IMG/VR virus record: IMGVR_UViG_3300021400_000252
Direction: 5' to 3' (one strand)
DNA length: 64,000 nt
From: a virus
Lineage: Duplodnaviria > Caudoviricetes
Below the pieces are notes generated by a model, which ran no database searches, was not told the DNA's origin, and saw only the letters and a list, made by a program, of their open reading frames with translations. A program made the position numbers and the translations under genes. Positions 694-23,812 of the stretch are shown piece after piece (the stretch's first letter is position 1; the number at the start of each line of letters is the position of its first letter).

Positions 694-1224
694 ATGAAGA
701 AAACTGTTATTATAAATTTATTTGCTGGACCTGGTGCTGGTAAGTCTACTGGAGCCACATATATTTTTTCTAAACTAAAGATGGCTGGAATTGATGCTGA
801 ATATATTTCAGAATTTGCCAAAGATAAGGTTTGGGAAGAGAACGATTTAGTATTTAAAAATCAATTTTATATTACTGGAAAACAAGCTTGGAAAATCGCA
901 AGATGTGATGGTAAAGTTGATGTTGCAGTAACAGATTCTCCAATATTATTAGGTGCAATGTATTGTAGTGATAATCCAGCATTAATTCCTGGAATTATGT
1001 ATGAATTTAATAAACACGAAAATATAAATCTTTTTATTAAAAGACGAAAAGAATATAATCCAAATGGTAGAAATCAAACAGAATCAGAAGCTAAATTAAT
1101 TGATACACAAATTATTAAACTTTTAAATGAAAATAATATTCCATTTACTGTTGTTGAAGGTACTGAAGATGGATATAACGAAATAGTTGAGAAGTTAATA
1201 AAAATGTTTAAAGATAAGGAGTAA
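694..1224 (+). CDS. P-loop kinase/ATPase (NadR/AAA_28-like)
   Basis: Walker A GPGAGKST, VTDSP, GRNQTE motifs. Confidence 0.75.
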   Translation: MKKTVIINLFAGPGAGKSTGATYIFSKLKMAGIDAEYISEFAKDKVWEENDLVFKNQFYITGKQAWKIARCDGKVDVAVTDSPILLGAMYCSDNPALIPGIMYEFNKHENINLFIKRRKEYNPNGRNQTESEAKLIDTQIIKLLNENNIPFTVVEGTEDGYNEIVEKLIKMFKDKE

Positions 1225-1227
1225 CTT

Positions 1228-3108
1228 ATGTGTAGTATATTTGGTTATATTTCACAAGACTCGACTAAAAATCTCTGGAGTAAATTAAAAACAGGTTTAG
1301 TTACTTTAGAATATAAAGGCCACGACATGACTGCCGTAGCTCTTTTTAATTCATCTAAGAAAAGAATTAATATTATTAAAGATAAAGGAACTGTTGCTGA
1401 GTTAGAATCAAAAATAGATTTGAAAGATCAAAATTTAATTGGTAATATTGGATTAGGATATGTAACTTGGGCTGATGATGAAAGTATTAGTGAAGCATCA
1501 AATCATTCAGATGATTATCTAGTAACTGGTATTTATAGTGGAAACATTAATAATTTAATAGATATTAAAGAAAGATTGCTTTCATATAATTATGCTTTTT
1601 ATTCAAAGTCTAATAATGAGATAATTTTAAATCTTATAGATTATTTTTATAAAAAATATAAAGATATAAATACTACTATTAGAAAAACATTATTAAGTAT
1701 TAATGGATCAATTGCATTAAGTGTAGTTTTTAAAGATGATTTAACTAAAATTTGGTTTGCTAAAAAAGAATCTTCATTAATTGTTGCATTAAATGAAAAA
1801 ACAAAAGAGTCTTATATATCTTCAGATACAATAGCATTGACTGATGATAATTTATTAGCATATCCATTAAGAACAAACGAATATGGATATATAAGCGCTA
1901 CAGAGACAAAGATATTTGATTTAAATGCTAATGATATAACTTCTGATAGACAACCATTTAATTTTTGTTCAATAAAGAGTGCTACAGGTCGTGGTAAATT
2001 TAAACATTATCTTATTAAAGAAATAGAAGAGACTCCAAAAGCTATTAAAAATACTCTTAATAAATATATAATAAATAAAGATATTGTTTTAGGAATACCT
2101 AATCAAATTTTAGTTAATACTGATGATGTTTATTTTATTGGAAGTGGTTCATCTTACAATGCAGGTTTAGTTGGTGAATATTTAACAAATAGATATTTTC
2201 ATTATTTTAATACTAAAACAATTTTAGCATCAGAGTTTATTTATAAGGCTGATCAATTAAAAAAAGAAAAATCTATTGCTATTTTCTTATCTCAATCTGG
2301 AGAAACTCAAGATACGTTAACTGCATTAGAATATTGTAAGTTATTAGAAATAAAAACACTCGCAATAACAAATGTTAAGACATCAAGATTAGCTTTTGAA
2401 GCTGATTATGTTTTATATACAGAAGCTTTTCCTGAAGTATCTCTTCCTACAACTAAATCATACTCTTGTCAATTAATTTTATTATACTTGATTGGTGCTA
2501 AAGTTAAGCATTTAAAATTATTACAAAAACGAGAATTAGATAAAAATTTTACAAATAAAATTCTAGATGATTATATTCAAGTTTTTAAAAGTATTCCAGC
2601 ATATATTGAAGATATCTTTAAAAATAGACTAGATGTTCAAAAACTTGCAACAACATTATCTGATAAACATGATATATATTTATTAGGTGGTGTAGATTTT
2701 CCAACATGTTGTGAAGGTGCTTTAAAATTAAAAGAAATTTGTGGAATTCATGCTGAAGCAATTCCAGCAGGAGAATTAAAACACGGTAGTTTATCTTTAA
2801 TTGATAAAAATACTTATTGTATTTTAATTAGTACTGGTGACACAAATGTCCATGAAATTTCTGCAGCCTCTGAAATTAAAGCTAGAGGAGGAAAACTAAT
2901 AGTAATTTCATCTAAAACTGAAAGAAATAAAATATTAAAAGAAACAACTGATCTTAATTTATTAATTCCAGAAATTATAAATGGATCACAATTTTTACAA
3001 TCTTTGACTATTATTTATTTACAATTACTTGCATATTATATCGCAATCCAAAAAGGAATCAATCCTGATAAACCAAGAAATCTAGCCAGAAGTGTTATAA
3101 TTGAATAA
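1228..3108 (+). CDS. glmS: GlmS-like glutamine-fructose-6-P aminotransferase homologue, catalytically divergent
   Basis: MCSIFG start, SQSGET, EGALKLKE, GELKHG, NPDKPRNLARSV; several catalytic residues altered (see findings). Confidence 0.85.
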   Translation: MCSIFGYISQDSTKNLWSKLKTGLVTLEYKGHDMTAVALFNSSKKRINIIKDKGTVAELESKIDLKDQNLIGNIGLGYVTWADDESISEASNHSDDYLVTGIYSGNINNLIDIKERLLSYNYAFYSKSNNEIILNLIDYFYKKYKDINTTIRKTLLSINGSIALSVVFKDDLTKIWFAKKESSLIVALNEKTKESYISSDTIALTDDNLLAYPLRTNEYGYISATETKIFDLNANDITSDRQPFNFCSIKSATGRGKFKHYLIKEIEETPKAIKNTLNKYIINKDIVLGIPNQILVNTDDVYFIGSGSSYNAGLVGEYLTNRYFHYFNTKTILASEFIYKADQLKKEKSIAIFLSQSGETQDTLTALEYCKLLEIKTLAITNVKTSRLAFEADYVLYTEAFPEVSLPTTKSYSCQLILLYLIGAKVKHLKLLQKRELDKNFTNKILDDYIQVFKSIPAYIEDIFKNRLDVQKLATTLSDKHDIYLLGGVDFPTCCEGALKLKEICGIHAEAIPAGELKHGSLSLIDKNTYCILISTGDTNVHEISAASEIKARGGKLIVISSKTERNKILKETTDLNLLIPEIINGSQFLQSLTIIYLQLLAYYIAIQKGINPDKPRNLARSVIIE

Positions 3109-3184: not shown

Positions 3185-4045
3185 ATGACAAACGAACTTA
3201 TTTACACAGGTTGGAAGAGATGGGTTCCAACATTAGATGAATGGGCAGAGTTTTCAGTTAAGGCCTATTCACCTTATGAGTTGAAAGAAAATGAGTATTT
3301 GTTAGTATTCAATGAAGAAGATGGCAAAGAAAAACTTGCATCTCAATGGTGTTATGAAAACGGTAAATTAAGAAAGTTTGGAAGGGGATCAATCAATTTT
3401 AGAAGTAAAAAGAGCGCGGATAAAAATATATGTATAAAACCGAGAAATTCAGAACAAATCTGCGCAATTGATATGCTAAAAGACAGAGATAAAACTGTTA
3501 AATTATTAACTGGTACTTGAGGTACTGGTAAAACAATGTTATTAGTTACTGCTGCTTTAGAAGCATTAGAACAAAATGTTTTTGATAGAATTGTATGGAT
3601 TAGAAATAATGTTGATGTTAAAGATACTAAAGATTTAGGTGCTTTACCTGGTGAAGTTAATGATAAACTTATGCCATTTTTAGGACCTTTTATTGACCAC
3701 TGTGGTGAAGCAGGAGTTGAATGTATGCTTAGTAATGGAAAGCTTGTTATTGAACCATTACAGAGTCTTAGAGGACGTAATTTAGAAAGAACTTTAATTA
3801 TGTGTTCTGAAGCTGAAAACCTAACTAAAGAACATATTCAATTAATTATTGCAAGAGCAGCTGAAGGATCAGAAGTTTGGTTTGATGCAGATGTTCGACA
3901 AAGAGATAAAGCAATTTTTGAAAAATCAAAAGGTATCGAAACTATGATTGAGCGATTAAGTGGAAATCAACTATTTGGATATGTCCATTTAGTACAATCA
4001 GAAAGATCAAAAACCGCAGCATTAGCTGATTTATTAAATGATTAA
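3185..4045 (+). CDS. phoH: PhoH-family ATPase (TGA 3518-3520 read through)
   Basis: Walker A G-T-[TGA]-G-T-G-K-T, LGALPG, LRGR, EAENLT, ERS motifs; the two ORF-track pieces are in frame. Confidence 0.9.
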
Positions 4046-4068: not shown

Positions 4069-4093
4069 AAACCGCATATTAGCGGTTTTTTTT
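4069..4093 (+). terminator. Rho-independent terminator followed by class A motif (4095-4103)
   Basis: AAACCGC-atatta-GCGGTTT plus T-tract. Confidence 0.8.
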
Positions 4094-4124: not shown

Positions 4125-4379
4125 ATGGCTAAAACTTATACAGAAAAAGAATTACAAACAATCTTAGAAAAAAATGGTAGCGATATTACTGTTAGTGAAT
4201 TAAATAAAAATAAAGTCTATATTTTTAGAATTAACAAAGAAGGCATGCCAATTAATAAAAAACACACTTTAGCAATTAATTTAAAAAACATGCTTGATAA
4301 AATCGGATTAAAAAGTATTATTTTATTAGATGATATAATTCAAGTTACTGAATTAGAGAGAGGTAAAGATAATGATTAA
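4125..4379 (+). CDS. Hypothetical protein
   Basis: AGGAG RBS before ATG 4125. Confidence 0.75.
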   Translation: MAKTYTEKELQTILEKNGSDITVSELNKNKVYIFRINKEGMPINKKHTLAINLKNMLDKIGLKSIILLDDIIQVTELERGKDND

Positions 4380-5337
4380 TATTAGAAGAAATTGTTTTGA
4401 AACAAATTCATCATCAATGCATAGTTTAGTTGTATCTAAGATTATTAAACCTTATACAGAAGATGAATTAGCTTTAGGATATAGCACTTGGGAAAAAGAA
4501 AGAAATAAAGATTTTGATCTATGGCATTGGATAGAACCTAGTGATATGACATATGAGAGAAGTCCATTCCAAGTATTACGAACTCCGTTAGATAAATTAA
4601 GATATTATGCTGCTTATACTTTAGGTACTTATAGAAAACCTAAAAAAGCTGATATAAAGAGAATCCAAGATTTTATTATGAAACAAACTGGAATTACCAA
4701 TAGAAAAAAGATTATTCTTTGTAAGGATGAGCGTGAATTCTATCATTATAAAGGATTTAAAAAGCATATTACTTATGGTGCTGTTTATTCAAATGATTCT
4801 GGCGAGGATCCAATGCATTATGTCGAAGTACACAATATCTCAATGGAAGATTTAATATTAAATCCTAAATACACAATTATTGTAGATGGTGATGAAAGTC
4901 AACTATTTAAATCATTATTTGATGCTGGAATTATTAATGCAGAGGATTTAGAAGATATTTCTTCTGGAACTGATTATTGGAATGATTCTGACATTCATGT
5001 TAGTGAGCATTCTCTTTACAATAGTTCAAAAGAAGAGATTGAAGCTCATATTAAAGAATCTATGCATCCATTAACTAAAACCATAACATTTAGTTTTGAG
5101 TTTTCTGATGATGAAGATAAATCTGGTATTGATAGAGATACTGTGGCAGAGTTTAATAATGATACTAAGTTAATCAAAGAATTAATTGATTATACTAGAA
5201 CATTATGTCCAAATATTAAGTCTGTATTCTGTGCTTACACATATTCAAGAGAAGATAAGATTACTATGAATGATCTAAAGGATTTAGATTTATCTATATT
5301 TGATACAATTAGGATTGATAATCGAGATGAGGAGTAA
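4372..5337 (+). CDS. FETNSSS-motif protein, long type (copy 1)
   Basis: Starts MINIRRNCFETNSSSMHSL. Confidence 0.85.
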   Translation: MINIRRNCFETNSSSMHSLVVSKIIKPYTEDELALGYSTWEKERNKDFDLWHWIEPSDMTYERSPFQVLRTPLDKLRYYAAYTLGTYRKPKKADIKRIQDFIMKQTGITNRKKIILCKDEREFYHYKGFKKHITYGAVYSNDSGEDPMHYVEVHNISMEDLILNPKYTIIVDGDESQLFKSLFDAGIINAEDLEDISSGTDYWNDSDIHVSEHSLYNSSKEEIEAHIKESMHPLTKTITFSFEFSDDEDKSGIDRDTVAEFNNDTKLIKELIDYTRTLCPNIKSVFCAYTYSREDKITMNDLKDLDLSIFDTIRIDNRDEE

Positions 5338-5343
5338 TATTTA

Positions 5344-5715
5344 ATGATAAATATTCGTAAAGGAACTTTTGAAACTAATAGTTCAAGTTCACATTCATTA
5401 GTTGTTTGTAATGAGGAAACTTGGTTAGATTTTGCAAGAGGTAAATTATTTTATAATACTTTACATGAGAGTAATGGTTTACCTGAGTTTTGTACTTTAA
5501 AAGATATTAAACTTCATATTAGAAGAATTTATAATTCTGTAAATAGAACTAAATTTGCAGACTTAGATATTGACGATGAAGCTAGAAAAGATGTATATCA
5601 TGGAATTAATGAGTTGTTATATTTTGAAGAAACATTCTACTCTATTGATGAGTTAGAGGAATATGATTATAATTCTGATAAGCAAGAAGCCTCATTAAGT
5701 TATTATTTTGGCTAG
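5344..5715 (+). CDS. FETNSSS-motif protein, short type (copy 2)
   Basis: Starts MINIRKGTFETNSSSSHSL. Confidence 0.85.
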   Translation: MINIRKGTFETNSSSSHSLVVCNEETWLDFARGKLFYNTLHESNGLPEFCTLKDIKLHIRRIYNSVNRTKFADLDIDDEARKDVYHGINELLYFEETFYSIDELEEYDYNSDKQEASLSYYFG

Positions 5716-5723
5716 GAGCTACT

Positions 5724-6158
5724 ATGATCGGAAAGATTTTACCTTATGAAGGAATATGAACAAGAGCAGAGGTTGAAGCAGATCCAGAGAATATTTATGT
5801 TTTTGGAGATAACTTAGCTGATGCTGAAACAGGATATGTTCCTTCTGTTACACAGGCAGTGATTAGGGGCTTACCAAATGCTTTTGGTATAATAACTAAG
5901 ATAGATAGAAAACTCTCACAAGAAAGTTTTTTAAATGATAGAAATTTTGGACAGTATAGATTCTATCTATACAATATACTTTTTAGTTTAAGAAATAAGT
6001 TAAAGGCTGGAAAAAATGTATATGTTCCAATGAAAGATGGACAAATTCTTTTAGGCACTGGAAAGGCACAAATGCCTGAAAAAGCTCCAATGTGTTTTGA
6101 ACTTTTATGTAAAACTTTTAATGAGTTATTTGATGAATTTGGAGATAAAAATGAATAA
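5724..6158 (+). CDS. Conserved phage protein with YVFGDN...QAxIRGxPNAxGIxTK motif (TGA 5757-5759 read through)
   Basis: AGGAG RBS, ATG 5724; GI[TGA]TRAEVEADPENIYVFGDN is in frame with the 5859 ORF. Confidence 0.8.
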
Positions 6159-7119
6159 AATAGAATTAAGAAAAAAGATCAGAAACAATTTAAATCACAT
6201 TATCGTACTAACAATACATCCTAGAATGGGATATGATTGTGAATTTGTAGATGACAAGCTAAGAGTAAATTATAAAACTATTGATGGTAAATTATATGCT
6301 TCTGATGAATTTACATTAGATGATTTTGGAGAAAAGTGGGATTTCGAGAAACCAGATATAGACGATTCTCTTAATGATGTAGATATAACTGCAGCTGAAT
6401 TAATTGAAATCACTAAGCAAGCTGAAGATGAAAAATATTCTAAACATAAGCAAGCAGTTGATGAATGCGTAAATGATATAAAAAGAGATGTGGCTCAACA
6501 TATTAGATTTGCAGCTATGAGTGGAGCATATTCATATACTCCACAAATTAATATAAAGGTTCGTAAATATATTAGAGAAAGAAGTCTTTGGGAAGAATTT
6601 GAAAAGGATTTTGAAAACACTGTTTACATGAGATTATGTGAATTTTATAATCCAAAAGGATTTACTGTATCACTTAATAAAGGTTATGCAGAAACCACAT
6701 TAGCAGTTTTAAGCTGGGATAGATCAAAAAGTGAAGCAGAAGATGAGTCTATTCAAACACCTACTCCAATTCAAACAAATGAAGATTTAAATAAGATCTT
6801 AAAAGATGCTTGTGGTGGAATTTCAAGAACTCCATTTGATTTACCACGTTATAATTTTCATAAAGCTGAAGGATTACATCCAGATTTAGTTTGTCCATAT
6901 TGTGGTGCTAGACATTATGAAGAAGGTGTAACAATGCAATCATTAGCTTATGTTCCAAGAATTTATAAAGATGGAATTTTACAAGATACTCCAAATCCTA
7001 ATTGGACAATAATACATTATCGTTGTTTAGAATGTGGAAAACAATTTGAAACAAAGAATGGTAAAATTCAAAAGATTGAAAATGTAGTCACAGCACAGGA
7101 TGGTGATATAAATGTATAA
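6151..7119 (+). CDS. Hypothetical protein with C-terminal zinc ribbon
   Basis: CPYC...CLECG; GGAG RBS before ATG 6151. Confidence 0.75.
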   Translation: MNKIELRKKIRNNLNHIIVLTIHPRMGYDCEFVDDKLRVNYKTIDGKLYASDEFTLDDFGEKWDFEKPDIDDSLNDVDITAAELIEITKQAEDEKYSKHKQAVDECVNDIKRDVAQHIRFAAMSGAYSYTPQINIKVRKYIRERSLWEEFEKDFENTVYMRLCEFYNPKGFTVSLNKGYAETTLAVLSWDRSKSEAEDESIQTPTPIQTNEDLNKILKDACGGISRTPFDLPRYNFHKAEGLHPDLVCPYCGARHYEEGVTMQSLAYVPRIYKDGILQDTPNPNWTIIHYRCLECGKQFETKNGKIQKIENVVTAQDGDINV

Positions 7120-7408
7120 AAATGAAATCAAAGAAATTAAAGATGATATTAAAGTTACCAAAATTATGTTTGTAATTCTTTGTATAATTATTTTAATTAC
7201 ACTGATAACATTCTTAATTCTAAATAAGTGTGGCGTTGTTAATGATACTACATTAAATTATGTAAGTACCGGTGCATTGTGTGGACTTATTTTTGGCACA
7301 TCAAATGCATATACAGACATCCAAAATGATAATGAAAAGATCGCTGACATACAACAAAAAGAAATTGAAGAGTTAGAGAATAAATTAAGTGAAAAAGAAG
7401 GAGATTAG
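7112..7408 (+). CDS. Small membrane protein
   Basis: Hydrophobic helix IMFVILCIIILITLITFLIL. Confidence 0.7.
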   Translation: MYKNEIKEIKDDIKVTKIMFVILCIIILITLITFLILNKCGVVNDTTLNYVSTGALCGLIFGTSNAYTDIQNDNEKIADIQQKEIEELENKLSEKEGD

Positions 7409-7409
7409 C

Positions 7410-8054
7410 ATGTTAAAAGTTAGAAATAGTGTATTTGAAACTAATTCAAGTTCATCACATGCTTTAGTTTATTCTCAAACTAACCAGAATAGAATTGAAT
7501 ATAAATTAGAAACTGATAATGGTGTTTTAACTATTCATTTTAGAGATTATGGTTGGTCAGGTCCTGAATCTTTTTATGGATTTGGTACTGATGATATATT
7601 AGCAAGTTCTAATGATAAGTTAGATTATGTCATGACTAGCTTATGTCGTCAGTTGAACTGGGGAGAAGAACACGATACTACTTATGATGAGGCTAAAGTA
7701 ATGATTGCTAATGGTGCTATTTATGAAAATGATGAAGCTAGAGCCTTATTAGAAAAAATTCAAGATTTATGTCCAGAAATTAAAGAAATTAAATTTGAAT
7801 TGAATGTAGATGAGTATGGAGATCCATTTGGAAGTATCGATCATGATAGTCAAGATTTATTAGATGATGAAGATTTAATTAAGGTTATATTTAATAAAGG
7901 ATGTTTGATAGTTATCGATAATGATAATTCAGATTATTATGATGCATTTAATCCAACATTAAAACCAGGACTAAATACTGGAGTGCAAGTATATGTTGGT
8001 AGTGACCATACTTGCTCAAAATATAATATCACAGAAGAGGATTTTGAAGAATAA
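7410..8054 (+). CDS. FETNSSS-motif protein, long type (copy 3)
   Basis: AAGGAG RBS; starts MLKVRNSVFETNSSSSHAL; contains GSIDHDS and VIDNDN. Confidence 0.85.
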   Translation: MLKVRNSVFETNSSSSHALVYSQTNQNRIEYKLETDNGVLTIHFRDYGWSGPESFYGFGTDDILASSNDKLDYVMTSLCRQLNWGEEHDTTYDEAKVMIANGAIYENDEARALLEKIQDLCPEIKEIKFELNVDEYGDPFGSIDHDSQDLLDDEDLIKVIFNKGCLIVIDNDNSDYYDAFNPTLKPGLNTGVQVYVGSDHTCSKYNITEEDFEE

Positions 8055-8560
8055 TGAGTAAACAATATAATGATTATATTATAGAACATGTAGAAAATGT
8101 TAAAAAAGCTTTTAAGTTTTTAAAAGATAATAAGATTATTACAAGCAAAGACTGCAATTTAGCTGCAGCAGAGAAGCAAATAGCACAGCATGATATGTCT
8201 AAGTGGACTGATGCTGAATATGATGCATATGATAAATACTTTTATAGTGAAAAGACTCAAAAAGTTAAAGATGACTTTGATTTAGCTTGGTTGCATCACC
8301 AACATGCAAATCCACATCATTGGCAACATTGGGTCTTAGTTCAAGACGATAATGGTGATAAAGCTTTAGAAATGCCGAGAGAAACAGCAGTAGAAATGCT
8401 TTGTGATTGGATGAGTTTTTCGTTTAAGGTTGATAAGTTAGACGAAGTATTAAGCTGGTATGATAGCCATAAAAAGACTATGATTTTACATAAAGAAACA
8501 AAGAAATTTGTTGAAGAAGTTTTAGACAAGTATAAGAAAGTCATTAAGGAGAAAAAATAA
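8054..8560 (+). CDS. HD-like metal-binding protein (DUF5662-like)
   Basis: HDMSK, HHQHANPHHWQHW, EMLCDW motifs. Confidence 0.75.
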   Translation: MSKQYNDYIIEHVENVKKAFKFLKDNKIITSKDCNLAAAEKQIAQHDMSKWTDAEYDAYDKYFYSEKTQKVKDDFDLAWLHHQHANPHHWQHWVLVQDDNGDKALEMPRETAVEMLCDWMSFSFKVDKLDEVLSWYDSHKKTMILHKETKKFVEEVLDKYKKVIKEKK

Positions 8561-9009
8561 TGTTACAAGTTAGAAAAAATACTTTTGAAACTAATAGTTC
8601 AAGTACTCATTCATTAATTATGTGTGAAGCTAGTGAATATAAGTTATTAGAAGACGAAGAAGCATTCTTAGTTGATGAGAAAGTAGTCTTAAAGGAAAAC
8701 TTATTTGATGCTTTAATCAATAATAGTGATTGGAATAAAGAAAAATGGGATAAGTATTGTACTGCATTAGGAAAAGATCCTGAAAGTCTTGAAGATCTAG
8801 TCGAGATGATTCAGCTTGATCCTAATGACTATTATGAAGAAGACGAAGATGAAGATGAGGATGCTAAACATAGACCATTTGATCGAAATGAAGTTTGTAC
8901 TTTAGATCAATTTTTAGATAACGAATATTTAGAAAGCTTTTCGCAAGAATACGAAACCAAATCCGGAGAAAAAATAATTGCTTTTGGTAATTATGGAGAA
9001 GAATATTAA
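8560..9009 (+). CDS. FETNSSS-motif protein, short type (copy 4)
   Basis: Starts MLQVRKNTFETNSSSTHSL; ends TKSGEKIIAFGNYGEEY. Confidence 0.85.
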   Translation: MLQVRKNTFETNSSSTHSLIMCEASEYKLLEDEEAFLVDEKVVLKENLFDALINNSDWNKEKWDKYCTALGKDPESLEDLVEMIQLDPNDYYEEDEDEDEDAKHRPFDRNEVCTLDQFLDNEYLESFSQEYETKSGEKIIAFGNYGEEY

Positions 9010-9013
9010 AATT

Positions 9014-9035
9014 GAGGCTAAATAGCCTCTTTTTT
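9014..9035 (+). terminator. Terminator followed by class A motif (9037-9045)
   Basis: GAGGCTA-aa-TAGCCTC plus T-tract. Confidence 0.7.
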
Positions 9036-9067
9036 ATTGTATTTTATATTATAAAGAGGTGAAATAG

Positions 9068-9973
9068 ATGAAACCAATTGGAAAAGTAAAAAATGGTAAC
9101 TATTGGAAGGTGCTATTTGATGATGGAACTTTAATTAAATATAATAAAGAGAATGAACTAATTCCCGAGTATCCAGATTCAATGGATGTTAAGATAACTA
9201 ATAGTTGTGATATGGGCTGTCCAATGTGTCATGAAAATTCAAAACCAAATGATAAGCATGGAGATATAATGAATGCAAAGTTTATTGAAACTTTACTTCC
9301 TTATACAGAATTAGCAATTGGTGGTGGAAATCCACTTGAGCATCCAGATCTAGAAGCTTTCTTAGAAAAGTGCAAATCTTTAAAGTTAATTCCTAATATG
9401 ACAGTTAATCAAAAGCACTTTATGAAAGACTATGATAGGATCACAAAATTGGTCCAAAATAAGCTTATTTATGGTTTAGGTGTATCTTTAACCAACCCTG
9501 AGGAAAAAGGCTTTTTAGAGCGAATTAAAGCTATTCCAAACGCAGTTATTCATGTTATTAATGGTTATCATAAACTTGATGAAATTGAAAAGCTTTATGA
9601 TAATAATTTAAAGATGCTAATCTTAGGTTATAAGACTTTTAGGCGTGGCAAAGATTTATTTGAAGGAACTAATCATGATCTTATTTCTAATAGAATGAAA
9701 GATTGGCATGATGCTTTACCTGAAATTACAAAGCATTTTGCAGTAGTATCTTTTGATAATCTAGCTTTAAATCAATTAGATCCAAAAAGATTACTAACTG
9801 ATGAAGCTTGGAATCAATCATATATGGGCGAAGATGGACAAATGACTATGTTTATTGATTTAGTTAAGAATACTTATTCAACTTCTTCAACGACTCCAGA
9901 AGAAGAGAGAAAACCATTATTAGAGGACATCAAGCCAATGTTTGATGATATTAGAAAGATAAATGGTAATTAA
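9068..9973 (+). CDS. Radical SAM enzyme
   Basis: CDMGCPMC (CxxxCxxC), GGGNP; no Cys-rich SPASM tail. Confidence 0.9.
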   Translation: MKPIGKVKNGNYWKVLFDDGTLIKYNKENELIPEYPDSMDVKITNSCDMGCPMCHENSKPNDKHGDIMNAKFIETLLPYTELAIGGGNPLEHPDLEAFLEKCKSLKLIPNMTVNQKHFMKDYDRITKLVQNKLIYGLGVSLTNPEEKGFLERIKAIPNAVIHVINGYHKLDEIEKLYDNNLKMLILGYKTFRRGKDLFEGTNHDLISNRMKDWHDALPEITKHFAVVSFDNLALNQLDPKRLLTDEAWNQSYMGEDGQMTMFIDLVKNTYSTSSTTPEEERKPLLEDIKPMFDDIRKINGN

Positions 9974-10199: not shown

Positions 10200-10673
10200 A
10201 TGGAAGAAAAAGTAATTGGATTTTGGCAAGAAAGAGAAAAATATGGCTGTTTTAGTAATTTCTATCCATGTGAATTTACTTGGGAAGGTAGAAAATTTAA
10301 TTGTTCTGAACAAGCTTTCATGTGGTCAAAAGCTAGATGCTTTCATGATGATGAAACAGCTAATCAAATAATGTTAGAAACTGATCCTAAAAAGATTAAG
10401 AAATTAGGAAGACAAGTTAAAGGCTTTGATGAAGAATTTTGGGCTGAAGTACGCTATAAAAATATGCTTTCAATTAATCATGAAAAGTATAGACAAAACC
10501 CTGAACTAAGAAAAATATTAATGAGTACAGGTGATACTAAGATAGTAGAAGATTCACCATTTGACTATGTTTGGGGAATTGGTAGAGATGGAAGTGGTCA
10601 AAATTTATTAGGACAAGTTTTAATGAGTGTTAGACAATATTATAAAGATATTATGAAAGAAGCTAGTCAATAA
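10200..10673 (+). CDS. NADAR-family ADP-ribosyl/N-glycosidase
   Basis: FSNFY, SEQAFM, KKLGRQV, EDSPFDYVWGIG, NLLGQVLM. Confidence 0.9.
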   Translation: MEEKVIGFWQEREKYGCFSNFYPCEFTWEGRKFNCSEQAFMWSKARCFHDDETANQIMLETDPKKIKKLGRQVKGFDEEFWAEVRYKNMLSINHEKYRQNPELRKILMSTGDTKIVEDSPFDYVWGIGRDGSGQNLLGQVLMSVRQYYKDIMKEASQ

Positions 10674-11020
10674 TGAAGTTAATTGTAGCAGGCTCTAGAG
10701 AATTTAATAATTATGATTTATTAAAGAAAAGTATCCAAGAAAACTTTCAAAGATATGAAGTAGAAGAAATAGTTTCCGGAACAGCTAGAGGTGCAGATAC
10801 TTTAGGTGAACAATTTGCGATAGAATATTCTATTCCAATTAAAAAATTTCCAGCTAATTGGGACTTATATGGTAAATCTGCAGGTTATAGGCGTAATGTC
10901 GAAATGGCAGATTACGCAGATGCTTTAATTGCATTTTGGGATGGAAAATCTAAAGGCACTGGACATATGATTAATATCGCAAAAGATAAGAATTTAAGAG
11001 TTATTGTAGTTAATTTTTAG
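10673..11020 (+). CDS. SLOG-superfamily protein (DUF2493/YspA-like)
   Basis: IVAGSR, SGTARGAD, AGYRRN, AFWDGKSKGT. Confidence 0.85.
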   Translation: MKLIVAGSREFNNYDLLKKSIQENFQRYEVEEIVSGTARGADTLGEQFAIEYSIPIKKFPANWDLYGKSAGYRRNVEMADYADALIAFWDGKSKGTGHMINIAKDKNLRVIVVNF

Positions 11021-11090: not shown

Positions 11091-11879
11091 TTGTCACTAG
11101 TAATTGCTATTAAAGATAAAAACAGATTTATTCTAGGAGCTGATAAGCAAGTATCACAATGGAATAATAAAGACCATTCTGCAACAAAAGTATGGTATTC
11201 AGAATATGAAGGTTGTTGTATTGGTTCTGTAGGCTATGCAAGAGCTTCTCAAATAATTCAATATATAAAAGGACTATTAGATGGTGCAGGATTTGGAAAA
11301 GAAAATTTAGATGATGCATTCATCCATTTACAACTTCCTAGAACTCTTTATGAAACATTAAAAGCACATGGTATTATTGTAGATGATCCAACACAACCAT
11401 TTAGTTTACCAAATGAATTCTTTATTGCATATAAAGATAAGTGTTGGAAGATTAGTCAAGATTTAACAGTCACTGAGATTGAAGATTATGATGCTATAGG
11501 TTCAGGTCAAGATGTTGCATTAGGTGTTATTGAAACATCGCATATGTATAATGAAAAGAATCCATATAGAATTATTACAAATGCTATTGATGTAGCAGCA
11601 GAAAAAACTCTATATGTTGACCATGAGATAGAATTTGTTGAAACGATTTCAGATAAAAAAGATGTTATTAATAAGATGACTGCTTTAGGATATGATATTC
11701 CGGATGAAGTAAAGAAATCTAAGAATCCAAACGAAGCATTAGCTAAATGGGCATTAGGTATCAATCAAGAACCTAAAGTTGAAGAAGAACAAAAGGTTGA
11801 AGAACCTAAACCAAAAGAAGAATATAAAAAAGAAAAGACTAAAAACAAAAAAGAAAAACTAGTAGAGAAAAAGGACTAA
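11091..11879 (+). CDS. HslV/proteasome-beta-like Ntn hydrolase
   Basis: N-terminal SLVIAI...GAD...K and AIGSG motif; TTG start after AAGGAG; charged tail. Confidence 0.7.
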   Translation: MSLVIAIKDKNRFILGADKQVSQWNNKDHSATKVWYSEYEGCCIGSVGYARASQIIQYIKGLLDGAGFGKENLDDAFIHLQLPRTLYETLKAHGIIVDDPTQPFSLPNEFFIAYKDKCWKISQDLTVTEIEDYDAIGSGQDVALGVIETSHMYNEKNPYRIITNAIDVAAEKTLYVDHEIEFVETISDKKDVINKMTALGYDIPDEVKKSKNPNEALAKWALGINQEPKVEEEQKVEEPKPKEEYKKEKTKNKKEKLVEKKD

Positions 11880-11969: not shown

Positions 11970-13046
11970 GTGTCAAGCACAACAACAAGATTAGGCTTAA
12001 CATTAATCGATAAAGAACATCTTAATTTAGAAAGATTTGTAGATTTTATAATCAATTTAGCCGGTGAAAACGCTGGTAGTTCACTAGATCCATTATCTTC
12101 ACTACAAAAGATAGATGAATTTGCACAGGAAGTGGACGAACGATTCGAAAGTTTTTCAAATCTTCATTTTGAGATCGTTCAATCATTAAGTGATGTTACA
12201 GAACAAAATATAATATATCTAATAGATAAACGAATTATTGACGACCCAAATTACAATCCTCAACAAGTATCTGAATCTGAGGTTGAACAAACTTCAACTA
12301 GTGCTAATGCATTTTATGAATATATAGTAGTAAATGATGCACCAGAGCAAATTGGTTCAACAGAAATTCCTAAAGAACTTTTTGAAGATATCGAACAGAG
12401 ATTAGCAGAAGTAGAAAATTATATCGAGCTTTATGAAAATAAATTAGCTCAATTAGAAACAAAATCACAAAATTTAGATGATATTGTTAGTCTATTAGCT
12501 TCAGATTTAGGACTTAATTCAGAAACAGAAAAAGAATATCCTACAGAAGAGGTACAAGTTCCAACTTATCAAAAGATACAAACACATAATGATTTATTAA
12601 AAATAATTAGTAATGATCTAGGATTAGATGATTTGGCAGACGGATCTTACCCAACAGAAGAAGTTCGAAAAACAACTAGAGAACTTGCTGAGGAAAAAGG
12701 TTCAGGACCTAGTTCTGAAGATGAAACACAAAATCAAGAAATAAATAATTTAAAAGAAACAATAAATGCATTAAAGAATCATTTAAATTATCTATATTCA
12801 TTACATAATTCAGATCCAAATTGGAATGTTTATGTAGAAGATTCTAGTGGAAATAAAGAAACAGTTGGAATCTCAATAGAAGAAAATACTCAAGAAGCAA
12901 TTATTACTGAGGATGAGAATGGAAATCAAGAACAACTTATTTTAGTTGATGAAGATGGCCAAACAAATGAAATTAGTGCTAATATTGAAGAATCATTTAT
13001 TGAAAATTATATTATAGAATATGACCGTGAAGAGGAGAATAAATAA
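11970..13046 (+). CDS. Acidic coiled-coil protein, probably virion-associated
   Basis: TTRLGLTL N-terminus, internal repeat DLGL..YPTEEV, class B motif upstream, AGGAGG RBS. Confidence 0.6.
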   Translation: MSSTTTRLGLTLIDKEHLNLERFVDFIINLAGENAGSSLDPLSSLQKIDEFAQEVDERFESFSNLHFEIVQSLSDVTEQNIIYLIDKRIIDDPNYNPQQVSESEVEQTSTSANAFYEYIVVNDAPEQIGSTEIPKELFEDIEQRLAEVENYIELYENKLAQLETKSQNLDDIVSLLASDLGLNSETEKEYPTEEVQVPTYQKIQTHNDLLKIISNDLGLDDLADGSYPTEEVRKTTRELAEEKGSGPSSEDETQNQEINNLKETINALKNHLNYLYSLHNSDPNWNVYVEDSSGNKETVGISIEENTQEAIITEDENGNQEQLILVDEDGQTNEISANIEESFIENYIIEYDREEENK

Positions 13047-13047
13047 C

Positions 13048-14358
13048 ATGGCAAAAAATGGTACACTAAAAAATTTAACTGGTGAAATTGTTTATCCAAA
13101 AACAACATCAAATCAAGTTACATACACAAGAAATGGAAAAGAATCAACAGTACAACAAACTCTTAACGAGTTAATTGATGGATCATATGTTCCAGGTGAA
13201 GGTGGAGAACCAATTGGAGTTTTAACATTAGCACAAGAAGCTTATAATCTAGCTAGTGAATCTTATAGTAAAGCAGATGATTCTTATAATAGAGCTGACG
13301 AAGCTTATAATTATGCAGATGAAATTAATAATAGTGTTAATAGTGTTGTAAGCTATACTTGGAATGGGTATGATCATGGTTTAGATCAAAACTATGTTGG
13401 GCTTGAAGGTGCTTACTCTGTAGCTAGTGAAGCATACTCATATGCAAAACAAGCATATAGCATGGGTAGTGAAATGTATCATTATCAGTATTATGATAAA
13501 TTTACTCGAACTTATTACGATGGTCTTAGTGGAGCATATACTCTTGCAACTAACATTTATAATAATATTATTAGATCAAAACTTTATAATGTAGATGAGT
13601 TAATGGAAGCATTTGATGGTTCATATAAAAATGCTACAATTCATACTTATAACAGTTATGCTGATTGTTATAGTGATACAACGACTTTCTATGGTGCAAA
13701 TGATTTATATAGTGCAGTACAAGCATTAGATAGTCTAGCTTATGAGGCTTATTCAAAAGCTCTCACAGCATCAAATGGAATTACAGAGCTTAATGATCCA
13801 TATAATGGTGCAACAGTGGCTATCTATAACCCAGATGAAGAAAGATATAGTGGTAACGAGACTTTCTATGGTACTTCACAAGTTTATTCAGCTATTCAAG
13901 CTACAGCAAACTTAGCTTATGATGCTTATAACCAAGCAGCAACTTACGGTTGGAACAGTGATAATGGTGACTACCCATCACTTGATGGATTCTATTATGG
14001 TGTAAGCGGTGCATACTCTGTAGCTGAAACATCTTATTCTTATGCCGTACAACTAGCTAGAGTACTATTTGGTGATGATGTATCTGGAGATTATTGGTAT
14101 GATAAAGCAAGCGGTACAGATTCAGACGGATACCAAGTTTCAGGTATAGAAGGTGCTTATCGAGTTGCTGAAGGTGCTTTCAATTATGCACAAATCATTA
14201 GAAATGAGGTTAGTGATATTTTCAACGTATCTGGACCTCAATACAACGAACCAACATCTCTAAGTACAAATGGTATCTATGCATTAAGAGCTAGAGTAGA
14301 TCAAGGCAGAGTGACTTTATACTGGGAAAAAGTTGAAGACATTACTAACAATAATTAA
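13048..14358 (+). CDS. Tyr/Ala-repeat protein, probably a fibre or virion protein
   Basis: Recurring GxxGAYxxAxxAYxYA units; IVYPKT N-terminal motif. Confidence 0.6.
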   Translation: MAKNGTLKNLTGEIVYPKTTSNQVTYTRNGKESTVQQTLNELIDGSYVPGEGGEPIGVLTLAQEAYNLASESYSKADDSYNRADEAYNYADEINNSVNSVVSYTWNGYDHGLDQNYVGLEGAYSVASEAYSYAKQAYSMGSEMYHYQYYDKFTRTYYDGLSGAYTLATNIYNNIIRSKLYNVDELMEAFDGSYKNATIHTYNSYADCYSDTTTFYGANDLYSAVQALDSLAYEAYSKALTASNGITELNDPYNGATVAIYNPDEERYSGNETFYGTSQVYSAIQATANLAYDAYNQAATYGWNSDNGDYPSLDGFYYGVSGAYSVAETSYSYAVQLARVLFGDDVSGDYWYDKASGTDSDGYQVSGIEGAYRVAEGAFNYAQIIRNEVSDIFNVSGPQYNEPTSLSTNGIYALRARVDQGRVTLYWEKVEDITNNN

Positions 14359-14410: not shown

Positions 14411-14467
14411 ATTTTACTGATATTTTGTATATTATATAGATATATACTATAGATTGTGAGAAGATAT

Positions 14468-15466
14468 ATGTTATTACAATTAATCGTAATTCATTATGAC
14501 GAAGATGAGTCATATATTAAAAATTTATTAAATGTTTTAAAATTACAACAATGGTTTGATTTTAGAGATTTAGAAGTTTTAATCGAAAATGATGGAGATA
14601 AAGTTGTTTATGATAAATCACTTTTTGAAAATTATCCATTTAAAATTAGATATCATGTAAATGAGTGGAGTGGACGAAGTGGAGTTAGACAACATGGATT
14701 AAATCGTGCAACAGCTGATTATGTAATGTTTTGTGACTGTGATGATACATTTTTACGTTTTGATGCCTTGGCCACAATTAAACATGCATTAATAAAAGAA
14801 AAACCTGACGTATTATTTACTATATTTAAAACTAACTTTGTAGATGATAATGGATTAACAAAGGGATTTAGAGATTATTATAATGAGAATGTTTGGATCC
14901 ATGGAAAATGTTTTAGAACAAAATTTCTAAAAGATAATGATATTAGTTGGAATAAATCATTAAATAACTTTGAAGATGCTTATTTTGTTCGACTAGTTGA
15001 TGCATTTAGACCGAAGAAATTTGGAATTAATTTAGACCTATATGCATGGAAGTATCGTGCTACAAGTAGTACTCGTGGAGATGGTAAAACTGAAATGTTA
15101 GACTATCTAAATTGTTTAAATTCTCAAAGAGAAGCAATTAAAGCATACATTGAATTAGATAAATTAAAAGATGCTGGCGTTAAATTATTTATAACTATGT
15201 ATGAAGTTTATTTCTTAATAACTTCAATCGATTCAAATATAGATTTAGTTCGAGAATATACTGCACATAGAGAACAAGTTGAAAAAGAGTTTATTGAATT
15301 ATACGAAAAATATAAACAATATTTAGATTATGTTTCTCCAAGACTTGCTTCTACGTTATATACAGCATTAGTAAAGAGATTCTTTGAAGAAAAACAAGTG
15401 TATTTAGTTCCAAAAGATACATTAGAACAATTTATTGAAAATTTAAAACAAAAGTATTTAAAATAA
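14468..15466 (+). CDS. Glycosyltransferase family 2
   Basis: ENDG, RQHGL, YVMFCDCDD, HGK, FED. Confidence 0.9.
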   Translation: MLLQLIVIHYDEDESYIKNLLNVLKLQQWFDFRDLEVLIENDGDKVVYDKSLFENYPFKIRYHVNEWSGRSGVRQHGLNRATADYVMFCDCDDTFLRFDALATIKHALIKEKPDVLFTIFKTNFVDDNGLTKGFRDYYNENVWIHGKCFRTKFLKDNDISWNKSLNNFEDAYFVRLVDAFRPKKFGINLDLYAWKYRATSSTRGDGKTEMLDYLNCLNSQREAIKAYIELDKLKDAGVKLFITMYEVYFLITSIDSNIDLVREYTAHREQVEKEFIELYEKYKQYLDYVSPRLASTLYTALVKRFFEEKQVYLVPKDTLEQFIENLKQKYLK

Positions 15467-15479
15467 TATGGAGTGAGAA

Positions 15480-16460
15480 ATGTTATTACAATTAATAGTT
15501 ACTCATTATAAAGAACATCCTGGATATGTTGAAAGATTTTTAGATAGTGTAAAAGTTCAAGATTATATTGATAAAAACGATTTTGAAGTATTATTAATCA
15601 ACGATGGAAATGAAAAATTAATTAGTGAAAATCTATTATCTAAATATGATTTTAAAATAAAGTATTTAGTTAAAGATTGGTCTGGATTATCAGACTCTAG
15701 ACAATTTGGAATGGATCATGCTACTGCTGATTATATCATGTTCTGCGACTGTGATGATCTGTTCTCAAGGATAGATTCATTATATAAAATCTTAGAATGT
15801 ATTAAGAAAACTAATGCAGATTTTATTATTGGTAGTAGATTTCAAGATGTAAAAGGAAAAGTAGAAATGCTTCAAGCAAAATCTTTGATCGGAAGTTATG
15901 AAATACATGGAAAAGTATATAAACGTGCATTTTTACTTGAAAAGAATATTAAATGGAATAAAGATATTATTATTTGGAATGAAGATTTTTATTTTAATAA
16001 TCTCGTTCTTTGTGAAAAACCGAAGATTAGTTTAATTGATGACGCAATATACATTTATAAATATAGACCTGATTCAATTACAGATTTTAAAAAGAATAAT
16101 TCAATTGAAAAACAATTAGAGATTCGTTTATCACTAATTCAAGCTTATATATTAACATTAAAAGAATTAAAACTTAGAAATAATAAAGAATATTTTAAAA
16201 CAAAGTTAATTGACCTTTTATTTCAATGTTTTGATGTTGAAAAACGATTTAATATTAAAAACCTTGATCAATGGCAAACAATTCGTTCAGAGTTTTCAGA
16301 AGATTTTAAATTAATTAATTATAAAGATCTTATAAATCGTTTAACTTCAACTCCATTAAATCGACCAATTATTAATGATTTAATATTAGTTCAAACGCTT
16401 CCAGATTGGTTAGCTTCAAAACAAATAACTATAAATTTAAAAGAGGTAAAAAATGTTTAA
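15480..16460 (+). CDS. Glycosyltransferase family 2 (tandem paralogue)
   Basis: INDG, RQFGM, YIMFCDCDD, HGK, NED; same MLLQLIV start as the previous gene. Confidence 0.9.
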   Translation: MLLQLIVTHYKEHPGYVERFLDSVKVQDYIDKNDFEVLLINDGNEKLISENLLSKYDFKIKYLVKDWSGLSDSRQFGMDHATADYIMFCDCDDLFSRIDSLYKILECIKKTNADFIIGSRFQDVKGKVEMLQAKSLIGSYEIHGKVYKRAFLLEKNIKWNKDIIIWNEDFYFNNLVLCEKPKISLIDDAIYIYKYRPDSITDFKKNNSIEKQLEIRLSLIQAYILTLKELKLRNNKEYFKTKLIDLLFQCFDVEKRFNIKNLDQWQTIRSEFSEDFKLINYKDLINRLTSTPLNRPIINDLILVQTLPDWLASKQITINLKEVKNV

Positions 16461-22474: not shown

Positions 22475-23812
22475 ATGTCAAAGTTAACCTTTGTTCTACC
22501 AACATGCGAACCGGATACAATTAAAAAATATTTAGTTAAATCATTAAAATACTTATTAAAAATTAAAGATAAAATATCTTTTGGGATTTGTTTTCAACCT
22601 CCATATACTGAACAACAAATTCAAGAGATTATAACTTGGTTTGAACCTTTTGATTTTAAATATATTTTTAAAGATTATAAAATTGAAAAACCTAAAGTAC
22701 CATTAATGAAAATGAGGAATGATTGTGCTATGCTCTATCCAGACTCAGATTATTATGCATTATTAGATGATGACATGGAATTTGAAGAAGGAATAGATAA
22801 ATATTATGATGATGTTATAAAATCTATGGATGAAGATCAAAAATTATGTGTTTGTTCTTTTTCTAAGAGGCCTGTAGCTTTAGAAAATTGTTTTTATACT
22901 AATGCTGGGTTAATTTATAGAGGTGGAAAATATTATGGTTATGAAGGTTTAGTACCACATAGACTACCTAATGAATGTTATACTTTAAAACCTTATGATG
23001 GAGAAGACTTAACAGAATTATTTGGTGGTCATCAAGATGAATTATGTGCAATGATTAGAATTGCTCAAGGTGGTTTAACTAAAAGTTATATAAGTGTTCC
23101 AACAAGACATTGAGAAAATAGAAAAGTTTTTGGATATATTCAACATGGTTGGAAAGGTGCTGAACCAATTGATGGTTCTGTCTGTAGTTTTATTAGAAAA
23201 TATTTTTGTAGCTTATATGATCTAGCTCATCGTAATCCAATTTTTGATGAAAAATTAAAACTAATGTTATCTCATCAAAGACGTGTCTTATTAGTAGAAC
23301 AATTAGCCCATCCAATGAAATTTACTTTAAATTTAAATAAATATACGAAAGTTTATTTCACTAATCACTCGACACCAAGAGATGAAAGATCAGTAAATAG
23401 TAATTCAATTAAGTATTCATTTAAAGTAACTAAAGCAGAAGATTATAAAGAATTTACAGTTTTACAATTACATTCTTTAGATAATGGACATGTTCCAGTA
23501 ATTAGAATTTCTATTATAGATAATAGTATTTATATTACTTATAAAGATAATTGTAATGTAAATCATTATACTAAATTGGATAACTTTGAATTAAATCAAG
23601 ATTATACGATTAGTATTAATATTACATCTGATTCTATTGAAATAAATGATGGTAAATGGAAATACGAAAGATGGTTTAATAAACATGAATTTAGATACGG
23701 AATTTATCCTCAGACTGATTTCGGTAACTATGAATTAGTTGTTCATAAAATTGAAATAGATAAAGTCGTTAATAACTGGGTAATAGATAAATATAGAAAT
23801 GTTAGATTATAA
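22475..23812 (+). CDS. GT-A glycosyltransferase fused to a PL7-like polysaccharide lyase domain (TGA 23111-23113 read through)
   Basis: N-terminal FVLPT...RN...LLDDD; C-terminal PRDER, LQLH, FRYGIYPQ. Confidence 0.65.

Follow-up and report, generated by a model that had tools for sequence, protein, structure and literature searches.

A shared N-terminal tag on divergent phage proteins and the radical SAM enzyme encoded beside them: a candidate two-part module

Why should four otherwise divergent proteins of one phage begin with the same peptide, and what is the radical S-adenosylmethionine (SAM) enzyme encoded beside them doing there? The question is raised by a 64,000-nucleotide stretch of viral DNA (Duplodnaviria; Caudoviricetes; IMG/VR record IMGVR_UViG_3300021400_000252), referred to below, at its full length, as the window. 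The DNA is phage-like, with a GC content of about 27%, and its genes are co-oriented across the first 42 kb. Four of these genes encode proteins, here called clients, that share an N-terminal segment, here called the tag, and they are followed by a gene for a radical SAM enzyme (rSAM, or R in gene orders). The preferred reading, to which we give a probability of about 60%, is that they form a two-part phage module in which one radical SAM enzyme modifies a variable set of tagged clients. The clients fall into a long (L) and a short (s) class, and the genes concerned are as follows (lengths in amino acids, aa).

4372..5337, plus strand: tagged client 1, long (L) class, 321 aa; tag at residues 1-19
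5344..5715, plus strand: tagged client 2, short-class variant (s*), 123 aa; tag, Cys at residue 22, YYFG terminus
7410..8054, plus strand: tagged client 3, canonical long (L) class, 214 aa; tag, DKLDY, GSIDHDS, VIDNDNS
8560..9009, plus strand: tagged client 4, short (s) class, 149 aa; tag, Cys at residue 22, C-terminal ...GEKIIAFGNYGEEY
9068..9973, plus strand: radical SAM enzyme, 301 aa; C47-x3-C51-x2-C54-H-E, GGGNPL, N-terminal beta-hairpin (NGNY...DDGT.I)

The tag comprises 18-20 N-terminal residues with the consensus [IV]-R-x3-F-E-T-N-S-S-S-x-H-[SA]-[LI]. In all four clients of the window M1, R5, F9, E10, T11, N12, S13, S14, S15, H17, and L19 are fixed, and little else is common to them. 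As a degenerate DNA pattern, F-E-T-N-S-S-S-x-H has exactly four sites in the window, which are the clients, and none in 100 shuffles; no fifth copy of the tag was found within the 64 kb. Both TCA and AGT are used for Ser among the copies, and both AGA and CGT for Arg, so the conservation is at the level of the peptide and not that of a DNA repeat, which argues for selection on the peptide. A first-pass annotation, made from the sequence alone, had described a shared leader on four otherwise divergent acidic proteins, and the alignment, the pattern scan, and the codon differences confirm it; all four clients are acidic, with pI values of 4.1-5.0. Each client open reading frame (ORF) has a GGAG/GAGG-like ribosome-binding site upstream, and the four ORFs are identical under genetic code 4. 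None of the four has a significant match to a Pfam, NCBIfam, or PHROG family; there are weak matches to Peptidase_C25 (0.028) and phrog_28997 (0.004).

Linkage of enzyme and tag was counted from both sides. Among viral (IMG/VR) loci fetched with the tag, the enzyme clade lies within 10 kb on the same strand in 72 of 79, mostly adjacent. Three of the seven exceptions have full flanks and carry a member of the clade on another part of the same contig (E 1e-100 to 1e-115); contig ends cut the loci of the remaining four. The 72 linked enzymes fall into 40, 33, and 18 clusters at 90, 70, and 50% identity. Loci fetched with the enzyme, for which an alignment served as query (the single radical SAM protein of the window retrieved none), contain one to four tag ORFs in 79 of 80 cases, and the nearest is less than 30 nt away in 67 of the 79; the single exception is a 17.7-kb fragment rated 7% complete. 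The motif is rare in prokaryote genome records (176 stretches in 185,579 species genomes), where it occurs mostly on contigs of metagenome-assembled genomes (MAGs) from many phyla including archaea. Both enzyme and tag are present in 29 of 41 loci from these records, the others being short contigs or second clusters. Taken by locus or by genome, exceptions to the co-occurrence of enzyme and tag are nearly absent, and this holds for no fewer than 18 deep enzyme lineages and for phages that differ greatly. The first-pass annotation had proposed an undescribed system linked to this enzyme clade, with co-occurrence of motif and clade as the check, and the tight linkage in both directions answers in its favor.

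The range covers phages of Firmicutes, Bacteroidota, cyanobacteria, and Planctomycetota as well as methanogen-associated contigs. In the cultured Microcystis phage Ma-LMM01, gp130 (tag) and gp129 are followed by gp128 (rSAM, named “Fe-S oxidoreductase”), and in the Lak megaphage Lak-B7 an rSAM gene is followed by four tag genes. A tblastn search of the phage collection with the 214-aa client found none, which is a false negative, as profile and motif scans do find the tag genes of Lak-B7 and Ma-LMM01. The literature searched gave nothing relevant on the motif strings, on phage radical SAM maturases, or on anti-defence, and the module has no name in the family libraries and papers covered.

Gene order is also recurrent: L-s-R is found in 57 loci, L-R in 20, L-L-s-R in 18, and L-L-s-R-L in 11, and the number of clients per module runs from 1 to about 10 outside the window, with arrays of up to ten. 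The order in the window, L-s*-L-s-R, is a doubled L-s unit with inserted passengers, and client 4 stands immediately 5' of the enzyme gene, the same as in the majority of loci. The two long-plus-short pairs recognized in the first-pass annotation are thus borne out by the recurrent L-s order and by the body clustering given below. Enzyme and tag are also fused, in both orders. The enzyme precedes the tag in L021 and L022 (454 aa, tag at residue 307) and in P0326 (tag at residue 392), while a tagged domain of the canonical type precedes the enzyme in P0340, P0342, P0344, P0345, P0347, P0348, P0351, and P0352 (566-596 aa). The latter, N-terminal fusions bear the variant tag I-R-R-x-I-x-E-T-S-S-S-S-A-S, which is without the Asn and His, so the minimal shared core is R...E-T-x-S-S-S.

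The tag is a portable segment, carried by at least 37 unrelated protein bodies. When 414 distinct tag-bearing ORFs from 202 fetched loci and the window had their bodies clustered without the tag, 37 body clusters resulted. The L cluster (n=235) includes both long clients of the window, the 214-aa protein and, in decayed form, the 321-aa protein, and the large s cluster (n=106) includes the 149-aa client. The body of client 2 groups with homologues in L082 and L162 in a small three-member sister cluster, and beyond these three there are more than 30 small body clusters. Client lengths range overall from 95 to 321 aa. Every class retains R(-5) in 99% and H(+7) in 98% of sequences, and both positions lie outside the pattern with which the sequences were collected. 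Because the tag is invariant while the body wholly changes, it cannot simply belong to an active site of the body.

The long class was followed with an exhaustive profile search seeded with the 214-aa client and its relatives; counted as representatives of 50% identity clusters, 4,016 match at E <= 1e-3 and 1,427 at E <= 1e-10. A typical member has about 165 aa, starts with M-x2-I-R-x2-V-F-E-T-N-S-S-S-x-H-S, and ends with I-I-D-N-D-N-H. Across 150 diverse members R5, E10, T11, N12, S13-S15, H17, and D172 are invariant, and F9, K70, Y73, G141, D144, H145, and S147 are nearly so. The DKLxY and N-x4-I-x2-D-x-D motifs that the first-pass annotation saw in its long type are both family-wide features. 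Client 1 retains DKLxY, and its DH and DNDN motifs have decayed to YSNDS and IVDGDES; it has relatives of 300-350 aa (P0036, P0045, P0133, and P0145). For the short type a Cys soon after the motif and a C-terminal FG had been noted, and these too hold across the family: the Cys lies five residues past the His in 80%, and the C-terminus reads (Y/F)-T-T-P-x-G-(D/E)-x-V-V-A-F-G-Y-Y-G-Y-D-G.

Among 73 diverse clients outside the short class, Pfam domains were found in only four, all of them Tad2-like (PF11195), and this is the only known domain in any client. The Tad2-like domain is fused C-terminally to the canonical tagged domain (L005:10001-10786, L007:9229-10014, L003:9992-10777, and L019:8796-9581; also P0023 and P0043), and the gene order in this lineage is rSAM-L-L-L. 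Tad2 (DUF2829) is an anti-Thoeris sponge; unlike those four, none of the four window clients matches PF11195, and the fusion tells us no more than that a domain known from counter-defence can serve as a client body.

On sequence grounds the product of 9068-9973 belongs to the radical SAM superfamily. It has the CxxxCxxC motif that the first-pass annotation had located after the second pair (C47, C51, and C54, the sole invariant Cys residues among 24 diverse clade members; the window enzyme has four Cys in total) together with profile matches and a Gly-rich motif. PF04055 matches it with an E value of 3.8e-6 and 27.6 bits, just below the 29.5-bit cut-off, and is precomputed on nearly all of its homologues; GGGNPL is conserved in the clade, and PHROG 16999, “Fe-S oxidoreductase,” matches at 3e-44. 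The clade is large, with 6,320 clusters at 90% identity (E <= 1e-10). About 35 residues stand ahead of the barrel and form a conserved hairpin, and the C-terminal segment reads SFDNLAL...W...YMG.DG...SST. A SPASM or twitch C-terminal Cys-rich domain was not found, the SPASM-type NCBIfam models matching only the N-terminal core and far under their cut-offs, and a Pfam scan gave no PqqD or RiPP recognition element (RRE) at E <= 1, where RiPP stands for ribosomally synthesized and post-translationally modified peptide. There are weak NrdG-type matches (PHROG 626 at 4e-4 and TIGR02826 at 1e-3), and the closest sequence in the PDB is SuiB (5v1q), at E 3e-5 and over the cluster-binding core only.

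About 45 longer enzyme homologues (among P0294-P0354) carry inteins, with LAGLIDADG/Hint domains, at two catalytic sites. The first site lies between the second and third Cys of CxxxCxxC, with the third Cys as the +1 residue, and the second directly ahead of GGGN(P/V)L. Inteins are usually located in indispensable motifs, so their presence at these catalytic motifs is a sign that the enzyme matters to the phages that encode it.

A complex of leader and enzyme, whose modeling the first-pass annotation had suggested, is predicted to form. The enzyme (24-row alignment), a 4Fe-4S cluster, SAM, and the 149-aa client (49-row alignment) were modeled together in three runs, with three controls; the median score of the three runs was 0.79, and the best of the controls scored 0.01. 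The mark against which such scores are read is reached by 58 of 80 solved complexes and by 2 of 110 mismatched pairs, and these counts apply only approximately here, since the alignments were our own and ligands ride along in the model. At least 68% of contacts are shared between the runs, and the partner has a pLDDT (predicted local distance difference test) of at least 66. As no like complex has been solved and the match to SuiB is limited to the cluster core, the model is unlikely to have been copied from a known complex. The confident interface of the model consists of client residues 1-23 and 25-27. The lowest predicted errors are for pairs between residues 1-7 of the client and residues 19-26, 28, and 31 of the enzyme, in what would be the addition of a strand to the N-terminal hairpin. 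Beginning with F9, the modeled tag contacts the ends of the barrel strands at 81-83, 108-112, 135-138, 158-162, and 182-186, and also 221-262 and 273-274; these regions contain the clade-invariant residues E81, T112, H162, K182, D230, and S274. The body of the client barely touches the enzyme, with only residues 40, 42, and 119 in contact beyond the tag.

How might such a module work? In the mechanism we propose, tag residues of about 1-7 would join the N-terminal hairpin of the enzyme (residues 19-31) as an added strand, and F-E-T-N-S-S-S-x-H would then run over the top of the partial TIM barrel, where clade-invariant polar residues form the lining. The enzyme would abstract a hydrogen from a residue of the tag and so modify that residue. 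The most likely target would lie within the E-T-x-S-S-S core, because this core survives even in the variant ETSSSSAS. With a single cluster and no auxiliary domain, redox-neutral or self-contained reactions are favored, and likely candidates would be oxidation of Ser to an aldehyde with the electron returned to the cluster, epimerization, elimination, or a cross-link. The K/Y, D-H-x-S, and D-N-D residues of the canonical long class resemble a pocket for a metal or a ligand. In a client of this class the modified loop would be located beside this conserved polar pocket (K70, Y73, D144, H145, S147, and D172-N-D), and the modified residue may serve as a protein-derived catalytic or metal-site residue. 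The short client, encoded nearly always between a long-class gene and the enzyme gene, would either partner the long client or serve as a second client. Three roles had been offered for the NSSSxH segment in the first-pass annotation: a radical SAM modification site, a self-processing Ser-Ser site, and a strand assembling long and short proteins into a metalloenzyme. The first of these fits best with the portable tag, the fusions in both orders, and the predicted placement in the barrel. For the third, a heterodimer of long and short clients, the conserved L-s-R order is a reason to keep it under consideration.

Several known systems offer partial parallels to this proposal. In RiPP maturases (SuiB/SuiA of streptide, CteB, SkfB, and PqqE/PqqD), as in the module, a radical SAM gene lies beside one or more substrates that share a conserved recognition segment, and the strand-addition binding with downstream residues in the barrel that is known there is predicted here. 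Unlike these maturases, however, the module enzyme has no RRE or PqqD, with a 25-residue N-terminal hairpin instead, and no SPASM or twitch domain; its clients are folded proteins of 95-321 aa rather than short peptides; recognition and the presumed site share one invariant stretch with no variable core; and the module is almost confined to phages. The sulfatase maturases (anSME and AtsB, acting on Ser/Cys-type sulfatases) resemble the proposed module in that the radical SAM enzyme targets a short invariant motif close to the N-terminus of complete proteins. Ser could again be the residue altered, which would yield a catalytic residue derived from the protein itself and placed next to a metal or polar site, and the module enzyme, like them, would need to act before the client folds. 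However, the (C/S)-x-(P/A)-x-R motif is absent from the tag and from the client alignments, the module enzyme has no auxiliary clusters and resembles these maturases only in the generic radical SAM core, and no sulfatase or alkaline-phosphatase fold was recovered for the client, although the fold searches give negative evidence only.

The fold of the long class is predicted with confidence and has no close counterpart among solved structures. An AlphaFold2 (AF2) model of the 214-aa client from a deep family alignment reached a pLDDT of 89 and a predicted template modeling score (pTM) of 0.87. Foldseek searches of the PDB with models from shallow and deep alignments gave no match at E <= 0.001, the best Z in a wide VIA-align search over 48,161 chains was 2.7, and a sequence search of the PDB with the client profile gave nothing below E 0.1. 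From the ESM Atlas the model retrieved nothing but clusters of its own family, which are viral and labeled “hypothetical protein”; one of these clusters is fused to a Tad2-like domain (97% of its members carry PF11195).

Some observations weigh against the proposal that the enzyme modifies the tag. Residues 15-21 of the 214-aa client are built as a strand into its own core sheet in the AF2 monomer, so the enzyme would have to act ahead of folding or extract the strand. Given that the canonical long class has conserved polar residues of its own, the tag could there be part of the client's active site and not a substrate. The complex is a prediction from self-built, unpaired alignments and demonstrates neither binding nor catalysis, and the reaction assigned to the enzyme is a guess. 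Many of the loci share one human-gut metagenome as their source and so do not count as independent. The last point is a feature that parts the enzyme gene from the clients:

9014..9035, plus strand: terminator-like hairpin (6-bp GC-rich stem, 4-nt loop, then a T-run), between client 4 and the radical SAM gene

A terminator and a promoter motif at this place were given as a caveat in the first-pass annotation. The terminator-like hairpin is real, while the promoter motif carries no weight, because promoter-like matches in the region are fewer than in shuffled sequence (27 vs. 40.6). The adjacency of enzyme and tag genes that is conserved elsewhere outweighs the caveat. One may speculate that the hairpin keeps the enzyme at a lower level of expression than the clients. 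A second terminator-like hairpin (4069-4088; 7-bp stem, then a T-run) lies just 5' of a small gene at 4128-4379, which overlaps the start of client 1, so that terminator-like sites flank the client block (4128-9009) on both sides.

Four other explanations of the linkage have been considered. The one that survives best, though we think it unlikely, is that the tag is a shared docking peptide: the bodies would be adaptor or specificity subunits that bring ligands (a nucleotide, a signal molecule, or a host protein) to one radical SAM subunit, or the polar residues of the tag would complete the active site of the enzyme. A single enzyme does serve many different bodies, fusions in both orders are typical of subunits, the conserved polar pocket of the long class could hold a ligand, and some relatives have a ligand-sponge domain of the Tad2 type. 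However, nearly all modeled contacts are made by client residues 1-27, with the tag predicted to occupy the usual position of a substrate and the body undocked, and the full invariance of E-T-N-S-S-S-x-H over unrelated bodies exceeds what docking usually needs.

It is less probable still that FETNSSSxH, DHQS, and DNDNH together make the active site of one enzyme family, with the radical SAM enzyme a mere pathway neighbor acting on the same metabolite. The tag does co-occur with DHQS and the C-terminal IDNDNH in about 4,000 clusters, and the core-sheet strand of the AF2 monomer is in keeping with such a site. However, the invariance of the tag is just as strict in the short class and in over 30 other body types without DHQS and DNDNH, the fusions set the tag directly after the C-terminus of the enzyme, and the complex prediction, whose controls were clean, has client and enzyme interacting directly. 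An active-site motif with incidental radical SAM linkage was the initial reading, and it was dropped after the two-way linkage, the body clustering, and the complex prediction.

A third explanation, which we hold to be very improbable, takes the enzyme for an activase that puts a stable or transient protein radical on the tag, for the clients to use in their own catalysis. Glycyl-radical activases (PflA and NrdG) are likewise small, single-cluster radical SAM enzymes without an auxiliary domain, which take a conserved loop of a folded protein into the barrel; several clients per activase are possible, as seen in the module, and the weak NrdG-type matches given above fit as well. Unlike the loops that these activases act on, the tag has no conserved Gly and no RVxG-type sequence and is N-terminal rather than C-terminal. 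The clients are too small, with bodies unrelated to the barrels of glycyl-radical enzymes; no match to the client fold was found among solved folds, including the 10-stranded barrel, and the short clients lack a plausible catalytic body. Finally, that the tag is a sorting, packaging, or self-processing signal unrelated to the enzyme (a capsid-targeting leader or a site of Ser-Ser autoproteolysis, the latter suggested in the first-pass annotation) is scarcely credible and already disfavored. The fixed spacing of the tag from Met1 on divergent acidic proteins does recall the leaders of T4 internal proteins, but the linkage would then be incidental, against a near-obligate two-way co-occurrence over distant phages, an internal tag in the rSAM-tag fusions, and a tag predicted to enter the barrel.

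The preferred reading, one enzyme modifying many tagged clients, leaves other genes of the region outside the module. One of them lies within the second pair of clients:

8054-8560: DUF5662 gene (PF18907, E 4e-35; PHROG 20637)

This is the gene that the first-pass annotation had called HD-like and counted as part of the system, an assignment that did not hold: its product has no match to an HD family at E <= 1, and DUF5662 occurs near the module in 0 of 79 tag-fetched, 3 of 80 enzyme-fetched, and 0 of 41 prokaryote-record loci. The three genes between the pairs, which encode DUF7831, a Zn-ribbon protein, and a small membrane (TM, transmembrane) protein, occur in 0/79 and 0-3/80 loci, and among the 41 only in the near-identical contig L162. 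As an internal control, other window genes recur in 0-1 of the 79 tag-fetched loci, with NADAR in 7. This non-recurrence indicates that DUF5662 and the three inter-pair genes are passengers. The contig L162 (DJXM01000094.1, 4.7 kb, binned as “Bacillales bacterium UBA7004”) is the closest public relative found; it carries the same L, s*, DUF7831, Zn-ribbon, TM, and L genes, with an L gene 78% identical to the 214-aa client. A fragment of phage DNA has probably ended up in a MAG bin here, and the bin may be a hint to the host lineage.

The genes around the module include NADAR, SLOG (YAcAr), AAA_28, and PhoH. Directly 3' of the enzyme, at 10200-11020, are a NADAR-domain gene (E 2e-49) and a YAcAr/SLOG gene; NADAR is near the module in 7/79, 2/80, and 1/41 loci. 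Upstream, at 694-3108, are an AAA_28 kinase-like gene and a gene for a GlmS-like amidotransferase with two SIS domains. These neighbors look like an island of NAD/ADP-ribose and nucleotide-sugar metabolism. Farther downstream, a 262-aa protein (11091-11879) has an N-terminal half weakly similar to proteasome subunits and Ntn hydrolases (PF00227, E 1.6e-4, below cut-off) and a Lys/Glu-rich tail. Two repeat-rich proteins at 11970-14358, probably fiber-like, are followed by tandem paralogous family-2 glycosyltransferase genes (14456-15466 and 15480-16460).

In the window TGA is a rare sense codon, for which Trp (code 4) and Gly (code 25) were both considered. The PhoH gene (3185-4045) is one ORF only if the TGA at 3518-3520, within the Walker A motif (GT-x-GTGKT), is read as sense, and for DUF7831 (5724-6158) translation with code 4 adds 45 residues at the N-terminus and improves the Pfam score. 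One to three in-frame TGA codons, vs. 171 TGG codons in all, are present in each of about 15 long ORFs, one of them of 2,875 aa; these ORFs include 29387-31720, 31746-40373, 22475-23812, and 59621-61228 (minus strand). No tRNA gene was found in the 64-kb window.

What the module is for is the weakest step of the argument: its clients are probably an infection-stage effector set, for host takeover or counter-defence. The variable copy number, the hypervariable bodies, the Tad2-like client in relatives, and the NADAR, SLOG, AAA_28, and PhoH neighbors are no more than hints that would fit counter-defence. A more far-reaching form of the proposal, advanced tentatively and at less than even odds, is that one residue of E-T-N-S-S-S is converted into a reactive or cross-linked residue (for example, Ser to an aldehyde), which would switch on unrelated phage effectors, including sponge-type counter-defence domains, in a virus-wide system of one maturase and many tagged clients for which no cellular counterpart has been described.

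With about 4,000 clusters of long clients (50% identity) and more than 6,000 of the enzyme (90% identity), the module is abundant, and its minimal form is present in the cultured phage Ma-LMM01 (gp128 and gp130), which makes it directly testable. If the enzyme does modify the tag, this would be a new radical SAM reaction on whole proteins. It would also be a general route by which phages mature a changing set of effectors, and a large share of viral dark matter, among it a fold predicted with confidence but without a solved relative, would acquire a function.

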